Shown: in pieces, positions 2,606 through 3,695 of the stretch
Layout of the letters: every line of letters begins with the position of its first letter
Position numbering within the stretch: the stretch's first letter is position 1
From: a virus
Lineage: Duplodnaviria; Heunggongvirae; Uroviricota; Caudoviricetes
Length of the DNA: 16,069 nt
Strand: one strand, 5' to 3'
IMG/VR virus record: IMGVR_UViG_2526164651_000005
Notes under the pieces: model-generated
Told to the model about the DNA's origin: nothing
Seen by the model: only the letters and a program-made list of their open reading frames with translations
The model's database searches: none
Translations under genes and position numbers: made by a program

Positions 2606-2806
2606 ATGGTTGCCGTAAATCATATACCACACCTTGTACACACACAAACGGCCTTTGTGTGGCGTTTTCTGGCACTGAGTGCCGGAGAATCCCAAATCAT
2701 CCACGTAACCGCTTGGACGGAACGCGAAGCGCGTAGCCGTTGCCCGTCCGGTTGTGTTGCTGTATTCGCCGCCCGTATTCGTCAGGGGGAAACCTATGCA
2801 CAATAA
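2606..2806 (+). CDS. Hypothetical protein, 66 aa (MVAVNHIPHLVHTQTAFVWRF...)
   Basis: AGGAG Shine-Dalgarno 5 nt upstream of the ATG at 2606. First gene of a rightward operon that ends with the primase. The 2504 start in the ORF track lacks a ribosome-binding site. Confidence 0.5.
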   Translation: MVAVNHIPHLVHTQTAFVWRFLALSAGESQIIHVTAWTEREARSRCPSGCVAVFAARIRQGETYAQ

Positions 2807-3017
2807 AACCACACCGAACGCAGCAGCCGCCGCACTCACTACGCTGATGCACGCGCTTATTGATATTGAATGCACGGCAGAGCTTGCGCAGGGAGAAGAA
2901 CAGAAAGACCGGACACAGTTCGCCCTGGAATGTATCCGATACATCGCAACGCGGTCACTGAATGACGCTAAAAATATTCTTGTTGCCGATTGTGAAAATG
3001 GGGGGGGTTATGCGTGA
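2796..3017 (+). CDS. Hypothetical protein, 73 aa (MHNKTTPNAAAAALTTLMHALIDIECTAELAQ...)
   Basis: GGGGGA Shine-Dalgarno 5 nt upstream of the ATG at 2796. Short overlap with the upstream ORF suggests translational coupling. Confidence 0.45.
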   Translation: MHNKTTPNAAAAALTTLMHALIDIECTAELAQGEEQKDRTQFALECIRYIATRSLNDAKNILVADCENGGGYA

Positions 3018-3390
3018 TGATCGTTTTAATTCCCTGAAACAGGAATTTTCCGGCGTTCCTGATGATGCGGCTGATGCGCTTTCGTCAATGCCAGAACTTA
3101 TTAGAGCGGCTTTTTTCTTACTTTCCACGAGAGAATATAAATCAACGGGGATTAATATGCGTGATATTTACCACGAAACAATAGACCGCGCATTTCTTGC
3201 ACTTTCTCACAGTGAAAACATGCTGGAAATATTGCGCATATGGCTTGAAACACTTGGCGACAATGAACGCGACAAACAAAAATCAAGAATTGCCACGGCA
3301 TTAATAACGCTTCTTGAGCCTGTAATAATGGAACTGCAAGAAATAGATCTATTGCACGACAGATATAAAGAACAGCACACCGGAGAATAA
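3010..3390 (+). CDS. Hypothetical protein, about 127 aa (MRDDRFNSLKQEFSGVPDDAADALSSMPELIRAAFF...)
   Basis: Internal ATG at 3010 overlaps the upstream stop (ATGCGTGA). An alternative ATG at 2998 is possible. No family recognised. Confidence 0.5.
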   Translation: MRDDRFNSLKQEFSGVPDDAADALSSMPELIRAAFFLLSTREYKSTGINMRDIYHETIDRAFLALSHSENMLEILRIWLETLGDNERDKQKSRIATALITLLEPVIMELQEIDLLHDRYKEQHTGE

Positions 3391-3395
3391 AAATA

Positions 3396-3695
3396 ATGAA
3401 ACTTAAATATTCTGGCTTAACTGCTAGTGGCAACACTCACCCTAAATTTACGCGCGGTGATATTTACCGCGACCAGTACGGCGGTATGGTAACGATTAAA
3501 GGCGTGGCAGAACGGCGCATCACCTACCGCCGTGAAGGTTACGAATATGATTGCGTGATGCCTGTTTATCAATTCCGGCGTGATTTCACGCTGGTACAGG
3601 CAGCGCCCCGCAGTAAACCAACCAGCAGGGAGAAAGCACGCGCCAATATTCAGGAAATAAAAAAGATGCTTAACGTATTCAGGGGTAAAAAATGA
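3396..3695 (+). CDS. Hypothetical protein, 99 aa (MKLKYSGLTASGNTHPKFTRGDIYRDQYGGMVTIKGVAERRITYRREGYEYD...)
   Basis: GGAGAA about 10 nt upstream. Its stop overlaps the primase start (ATGA), so it is translationally coupled to the primase gene. Confidence 0.55.
   Translation: MKLKYSGLTASGNTHPKFTRGDIYRDQYGGMVTIKGVAERRITYRREGYEYDCVMPVYQFRRDFTLVQAAPRSKPTSREKARANIQEIKKMLNVFRGKK

Follow-up and report, generated by a model that had tools for sequence, protein, structure and literature searches.

Four small genes and a putative promoter region precede the primase

The window (the whole stretch of DNA analyzed, 16,069 nt) carries four open reading frames on the plus strand upstream of a primase gene, each with a ribosome-binding site (RBS): ORF1 (2606-2806, 66 aa; GGAG, 5 nt before the ATG), ORF2 (2796-3017, 73 aa; GGGGG, 6 nt before), ORF3 (3010-3390, 126 aa; a run of eight Gs, 2 nt before) and ORF4 (3396-3695, 99 aa; GGAG, 10 nt before). 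The initial annotation of this DNA had described four such genes, and their coordinates, homologues and substitution rates agree with it, as do the lengths of 66, 73 and 99 aa, while ORF3 had been given as about 127 aa. Its statement that the genes overlap one another and the primase start holds for ORF1/ORF2 (11 nt), ORF2/ORF3 (8 nt) and ORF4, which an ATGA overlap joins to the primase (3692-5443), but ORF3 and ORF4 are separated by a gap of 5 nt. The tight packing of this unit suggests, as had been proposed, that all four genes are co-transcribed with the primase; a terminator scan of the plus strand between the genes gave nothing convincing, with one weak hairpin lying within ORF1. Homologues of each ORF are numerous in E. 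coli and Shigella, and pairwise dN/dS in the annotated frames ranges from 0.14 to 0.71; by these sequence comparisons, the four are more than chance reading frames and are under purifying selection (dN/dS <1). Alternative starts giving products of 100 aa (ATG at 2504) and 142 aa (ATG at 2962) were rejected, as they have no RBS and the shorter starts are conserved in relatives.

Upstream of ORF1 lies a putative promoter/operator region (2460-2528) with a -35 hexamer TTGACA (2470-2475) and a candidate -10 hexamer TAGTGT (2494-2499), both read from the sequence, as well as two 21-nt repeats of the form GTGT..TGACAC (2460-2480 and 2501-2521) and a palindrome (2502-2528) found by repeat search. The promoter scan did not list the promoter at 2470-2499. 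A divergently transcribed gene on the minus strand (2297-2476) encodes a 59-aa ribbon-helix-helix-like protein with weak matches to YlcI/YnfO (NF041551, 5e-4) and to a PHROG family of Arc-like repressors (2e-6), and EcCICFT073 has a YlcI/YnfO gene in the corresponding position. We regard this protein as the candidate repressor of the operon.

The island is a capsid-forming PICI

Judged by its gene content and insertion site, the window holds a capsid-forming phage-inducible chromosomal island (cf-PICI) of Shigella flexneri type, which lies between roxA and phoQ and takes up about 14.4 kb of the window; the same site is used by O157 Sp7/OI-51 (EcCIEDL933) and by EcCICFT073. The left end consists of an integrase gene (1-1230), alpA (PF05930 match, 5e-18) and the plus-strand primase (3692-5443), the last gene of the unit, with Pfam matches to D5_N and DUF5906 and 90% identity to the EcCICFT073 primase. 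The island also encodes its own head and packaging set (HK97 capsid, protease, portal, connectors, HNH, TerS and TerL), all ten head and packaging proteins being 95-100% identical to annotated genes of a related locus (L001), and no tail or lysis genes are present in the annotation of that locus or of Sakai Sp7. A full head and packaging module of this kind in an element of about 15 kb, combined with int, alpA, a D5_N/DUF5906 primase and the roxA-phoQ site, therefore places the island among the cf-PICIs (bioRxiv 10.1101/2022.09.08.507074; PMC6092414). A GTDB scan returned solely an S. flexneri chromosome, and the lineage is widespread (at least 1000 contigs). Most of SSB and half of PerC are gone from this copy; given these deletions and the one between orfB and orfC described below, parts of the Shigella island may no longer work.

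With the prototype cf-PICI, EcCIEDL933/Sakai Sp7, the island shares its integration site, the int-alpA-pri arrangement with the HK97 capsid, portal, protease, connector, HNH and terminase set, and a first gene (ECs1577) 95% identical to ORF1; it differs in the middle genes (ECs1578-1580 there, orfA, orfB and orfC here) and in the primase, which in Sp7 is of another type (710 aa) with 53% identity at the N-terminus only. EcCICFT073, the prototype E. coli PICI, has the same alpA-pri order (a YlcI-like gene on the minus strand, then an Icd-like gene, small ORFs, DUF4222 and primase), with identities to the window of 97% for ORF2, 90% for orfC, 90% for the primase and 94% for AlpA. However, its small genes are five separate ones (76, 73, 73 and 77 aa, then DUF4222), of which the 76-aa gene is missing from the window and orfB is fused to orfC; its Icd allele is only 47% identical to that of the window, and it is without the full capsid and packaging module.

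The initial annotation had taken the element for a P4-type satellite, in which this slot holds helper-manipulation genes (anti-repressor, kil, replication regulators), and had suggested novel factors of helper derepression or interference. The position before the primase does resemble the P4 left operon, the middle ORFs are small, acidic and without assigned function, and the relationship of ORF1 to a cell-division inhibitor makes a kil-like activity plausible for it. An antirepressor, by comparison, has no family match among the four in Pfam, NCBIfam or PHROG. A P4-type satellite depends on the capsid genes of its helper and has the characteristic genes sid, psu, delta, epsilon and CI RNA. 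The island instead has its own capsid and packaging genes, P4-like names are absent from the annotation of its close relatives (a comparison by annotation names), and the P4 resemblance of PICI Int, AlpA and Pri-Rep is only distant (PMC6092414). Induction of Gram-negative PICIs runs from helper phage to satellite, through AlpA (PMC6092414), and not the other way; EcCIEDL933, the only element for which AlpA-mediated helper induction followed by packaging into small capsids of its own fitted with tails from the helper has been described, neither interferes with its helper nor lowers helper titres (bioRxiv 10.1101/2022.09.08.507074). A P4-style set of helper-manipulating genes is thus very unlikely. 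Homology of all four ORFs to known P4 proteins, which according to that annotation would make them unremarkable, was not found, P4 being the wrong comparison set for this cf-PICI. As for its remark that none of the four is recognizable, this stands for ORF2 and ORF3, which have no Pfam or NCBIfam match, but not for ORF1 (NF033153) and ORF4 (DUF4222; 88% identity to ECs1581), whose families were found by homology searches; searches of PDB sequences gave no match.

ORF1 is an Icd-like protein

By sequence similarity, ORF1 is an Icd-like protein, a member of the family of a phage cell-division inhibitor. Residues 17-60 match NCBIfam NF033153 with 64.6 bits (cut-off 25; 6e-18), and BLASTP aligns ORF1 with residues 8-50 of phage P1 Icd at 41% identity over 46 residues (E = 1e-7). 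Residues 12-51 of P1 Icd, which match NF033153 too, form its FtsZ-binding core (PMC11897509), so that the alignment spans this 40-residue core; only P1 Icd is known to bind FtsZ, and for ORF1 such binding is putative, by analogy. When tblastn was run against 50,697 phage genomes, ORF1 and ORF4 each gave a single weak match, and close relatives of either are therefore rare in deposited phage genomes.

The comparison with the immI operon of P1 (c4 RNA, icd, ant) extends to gene order and control. In both cases the icd gene comes first in its operon and overlaps the next gene, and its start of translation is under RNA control, which for ORF1 is a prediction. On the other hand, identity is only 41%, the gene downstream of icd in P1 is an antirepressor whereas ORF2 is not one by Pfam and PHROG, and Rfam found no C4 match near ORF1, even with E values up to 10, so the P1 immI context is absent. 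P1 C4 is a processed RNA of the same strand, while the RNA predicted in the window is a true cis-antisense RNA from the opposite strand. A direct repeat (TAGGAGCAGTAACGG / TAGGAGCCGTTATGG) was considered as a P1-like target duplication and rejected, its loop sequence not being conserved in relatives.

A predicted antisense RNA covers the icd translation start

On the minus strand at 2534-2612 we predict a cis-antisense small RNA of about 76 nt that covers both the Shine-Dalgarno sequence (SD; 2597-2600) and the ATG (2606) of ORF1. Its proposed -10 box, TATGAT (2624-2619), is kept in variants: 86 of 87 unique variants have the motif TATNAT at a constant distance, in 64 cases with the extended TG, and it varies solely at the fourth position (TATAAT, TATTAT), although the surrounding codons vary. 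At the other end, the terminator scan and covariation point to a two-part, terminator-like hairpin (2544-2576) followed by a T-run (2535-2543) that is seen 3' of the hairpin on the minus strand only, and hairpin and T-run together read as the predicted intrinsic terminator of a leftward transcript. These predicted elements, an opposite-strand -10 and a terminator, bracket the translation start of icd. Between them, the conserved leader motif TCTAACCA(A/C)CAACG (2576-2589) would form the 3' arm of the 5' stem of the antisense RNA, and the anti-SD sequence is placed in a loop. The motif is kept in the window and in seven related loci (L001-L007); since it served as the search pattern, its presence in the IMG/VR loci is by selection.

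The predicted RNA has a minimum free energy of -30.5 kcal/mol (z = -4.1), and fold stability favors the minus over the plus strand in 69 of 69 variants, with a mean difference of 13.5 kcal/mol. For the terminator hairpin alone the minus-strand fold is the more stable in 66 of 69 variants, and its G-U pairs would be A-C mismatches on the plus strand. RNAalifold recovered 13 pairs in 28 variants of this hairpin, eight of them with compensatory changes. By these folds and alignments, RNA structure is selected on the antisense strand. It could be argued that the hairpin and the leader motif act in the sense mRNA instead, as a 5' stabilizer, an attenuator or a start-sequestering leader, and that there is no antisense RNA. 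The complementarity is indeed present on the plus strand as well, where the leader motif would base-pair with sequence around the icd start; yet a sense-strand element accounts poorly for the many G-U pairs that become mismatches there, for a strand preference seen in every variant, for a T-run 3' of the hairpin on one strand only and for a minus-strand -10 held at constant distance despite variable codons, and we consider it improbable.

Antisense control of a translation start is known from the sar RNA of P22 immI, RNA-OUT of IS10 and SymR of symE. Such RNAs are small, are made from the opposite strand, end at an intrinsic terminator and are complementary to the SD and start codon of a gene whose product is harmful. 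The predicted RNA shares the opposite-strand origin, the terminator end and the complementarity to SD and start codon, as far as sequence can tell, but it has no sequence or Rfam relationship to any of them. Rfam searches of the whole window at the gathering threshold, and of 1500-3800 with E values up to 10, found no family and no C4, IsrK or Esr41, the low-threshold scan giving a chance 24-bit match to the 'rnk leader' on the minus strand. The locus is not mentioned in the main text or supplements of PMC4104026.

ORF2 and ORF3 come from a pool of small acidic cassettes

The middle of the operon varies between related islands. We surveyed 131 related loci picked by the leader motif, many of them close relatives, and found an Icd-like gene after the motif in all 131 (so that 'Icd first' is partly by selection), DUF4222 downstream in 122, and then a replicase in 113. 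The interval from Icd to DUF4222 is mosaic, with a length of 193-1334 nt and one to six small genes. A divergent IMG/VR element has the same gene order as the surveyed loci.

ORF2 (orfA, 2796-3017, plus strand), an acidic 73-aa cassette protein (pI 4.9), is 97% identical to a 73-aa hypothetical protein of EcCICFT073 and aligns with the N-terminal half of phrog_2512 and of phrog_5146; its exact sequence occurs on at least 1000 contigs. ORF3 (3010-3390, plus strand) is a 126-aa chimera in which codons 1-48 of orfB are fused in frame to orfC. DNA alignment with relatives traces it to the loss of 76 nt at the direct repeat ACGGGG (3145-3150), and with them went the last 25 codons of orfB, a 73-aa gene in relatives. 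In agreement with this origin, BLASTP with ORF3 matches both EcCICFT073 genes and its PHROG matches are split over two families. The fusion is lineage-specific, with the exact 126-aa protein on only 36 contigs. The orfC part (3157-3390, plus strand) has an RBS (GGGGA) and an ATG (3157) of its own and encodes a helical-hairpin protein of 77 aa; in nearly all relatives it is a free-standing gene.

At the ORF2/ORF3 junction a poly-G tract (3000-3007, G8 here) codes for the Gly-Gly-Gly end of orfA and forms the SD of the next gene. This tract is hypervariable, from G6 to G11 across loci and exact-sequence look-ups: other loci have G7 to G10, and the look-ups found G6, G8, G9 and G11. One locus (L009) equals the window over 7.4 kb except for G9 in place of G8. 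In-frame orfA-orfB fusions occur at G7 and G10, and the split states G8 and G9 are the commonest in E. coli too (at least 1000 contigs each). Programmed ribosomal frameshifting at the tract was rejected because the DNA tract length itself differs between near-identical islands. Natural fusions join A to B, B to C and A to C. As these comparisons indicate, ORF2 and ORF3 are drawn from a pool of small acidic cassette genes that are shuffled, fused and split between related islands.

What the cassettes do may be read in two further ways. One is that orfA, orfB and orfC are an early counter-defence or competition array: their small acidic products would inhibit proteins of the host or of rival elements, and diversifying pressure would drive their exchange between islands. 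The low pI of the cassettes (4.4-5.0), their highly mosaic content (one to six) between fixed Icd and RgdR ends, the conserved junctions that permit recombination (ATGCGTGAT starts after G-rich RBSs) and the three kinds of fusion, which suggest joint action, would all fit. However, no match was found in the PADLOC defence models, Pfam, NCBIfam or, with single proteins and with profiles, PDB sequences, the predicted fold is a generic helical hairpin, and dN/dS is below 1, not diversifying, which leaves such an array unlikely. The other is decay: ORF2 and the 5' part of ORF3 would be remnants, only orfC (from 3157) would be functional, and the G-tract frameshift and the 76-nt deletion would be degenerative. 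Consistent with this, PGAP labels the orfA-orfB stretch 'frameshifted' in several genomes, the deletion has removed the last 25 codons of orfB, SSB and PerC are also largely or partly lost from the island, and the orfB portion of the structure model has a pLDDT of about 50. Against decay, the split G8 and G9 states are the most frequent in E. coli too, orfB retains its own RBS and ATG and is joined to orfC in frame by the deletion, the packaging genes are intact (95-100% identity) and the lineage is found on at least 1000 contigs; we hold it to be a minority possibility, although one of some weight.

ORF4 is RgdR and is coupled to the primase

By family match and orthology, ORF4 is RgdR (DUF4222); it is basic, has 99 aa, and its translation is coupled to that of the primase. 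It scores 85.2 bits against Pfam PF13973 (gathering score 27) and is 88% identical to ECs1581 over 99 aa and 77% identical to C1493 of CFT073. Like ECs1581 (O157:H7 Sakai Sp7; EDL933 OI-51, CP-933C) and C1493, it has 99 aa, DUF4222, the RGD motif and K35, lies in an island between roxA (ycfD) and phoQ and overlaps the primase start, as expected of a close ortholog of ECs1581; residues A10 and R45 are as in C1493, unlike ECs1581. It keeps T19-R20-G21-D22 (RGD motif, residues 20-22) and K35, and R20 and K35 have been linked to RgdR activity (PMC3378721). The allele thus carries the activity-linked residues, its own activity being putative; R20 varies across the DUF4222 family (R/N/H/P/C) and so does not define it. 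The structure model shows an SH3/Tudor-like barrel with a C-terminal helix. One protein that fuses DUF4222 to a primase zinc-ribbon exists, and an IMG/VR scan with one divergent DUF4222 protein gave no result.

ECs1581 is a published activator of LEE type III secretion, with phenotypes in LEE1 activation, motility repression and Congo-red binding, and it binds DNA non-specifically (PMC3378721). All analyzed E. coli PICIs encode RgdR (PMC6092414). Since a Shigella-type host is without LEE or flagellar motility, these read-outs are not applicable to ORF4. That the published phenotypes all concern the host rather than the satellite (PMC3378721), and that RgdR has been grouped with accessory and virulence genes (PMC6092414), would suit a 'moron', cargo that regulates host virulence and contributes nothing to the satellite cycle. 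This seems to us a poor fit to the survey, in which RgdR holds a fixed place, the last before the replicase; in 109 of 113 loci, which span four replicase families, the rgdR stop codon overlaps the start of the replicase gene. RgdR is also found in Shigella and in commensals without LEE (PMC3378721), and accessory cargo of PICIs normally sits at the island ends, not within the replication operon (PMC6092414). Cargo status is therefore improbable, and the fixed coupling of RgdR to replicases of four unrelated kinds speaks for a function in the satellite itself.

An early operon that may be guarded by an antisense RNA

Taken together, we interpret the region as the section nearest the promoter in a cf-PICI's early (replication) operon, with the antisense, Icd and RgdR steps set out here, and give this reading a probability of roughly 70%. 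The operon would be read from the promoter at about 2470-2499, controlled by the divergent ribbon-helix-helix protein and turned on once a helper phage induces AlpA, by analogy with other Gram-negative PICIs. In the quiescent island, a constitutive antisense RNA of about 76 nt would pair with the RBS and start codon of icd, silencing the toxic first gene and probably also the translationally coupled genes behind it. We infer the antisense RNA, the repression by the ribbon-helix-helix protein and the dependence on AlpA. After induction, the Icd-like protein may bind FtsZ and halt division while the island is replicated and packaged. RgdR would be made in step with the primase, possibly as a small basic SH3/Tudor-like factor that binds DNA or the polymerase in island replication or transcription, its effects on host virulence genes then being a side effect, and the cassette proteins would be accessory.

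A broader version, for E. coli and Shigella PICIs at large, is tentative, and we lean slightly against it as a whole. In these elements an undescribed antisense RNA of about 76 nt (extended -10, anti-SD loop, covarying terminator) may silence the Icd-like gene, as a switch resembling c4-icd of P1 but of independent origin; behind it would stand a recombining acidic array with a phase-variable poly-G tract, and RgdR would act in satellite replication or transcription, not in host virulence.

With ORF1 and ORF4 in described families (Icd-like and RgdR), the finding is largely ordinary: a conserved early operon of a known satellite family that includes a published EHEC virulence regulator. Even so, an undescribed, predicted antisense RNA seems to guard the operon, and this would explain how a division inhibitor that is toxic and encoded first in the operon stays silent in uninduced cells. 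In addition, an RgdR allele with the activity-linked residues resides in a very common S. flexneri island, and if RgdR serves the satellite, its regulation of virulence would be recast as a side effect of satellite biology.

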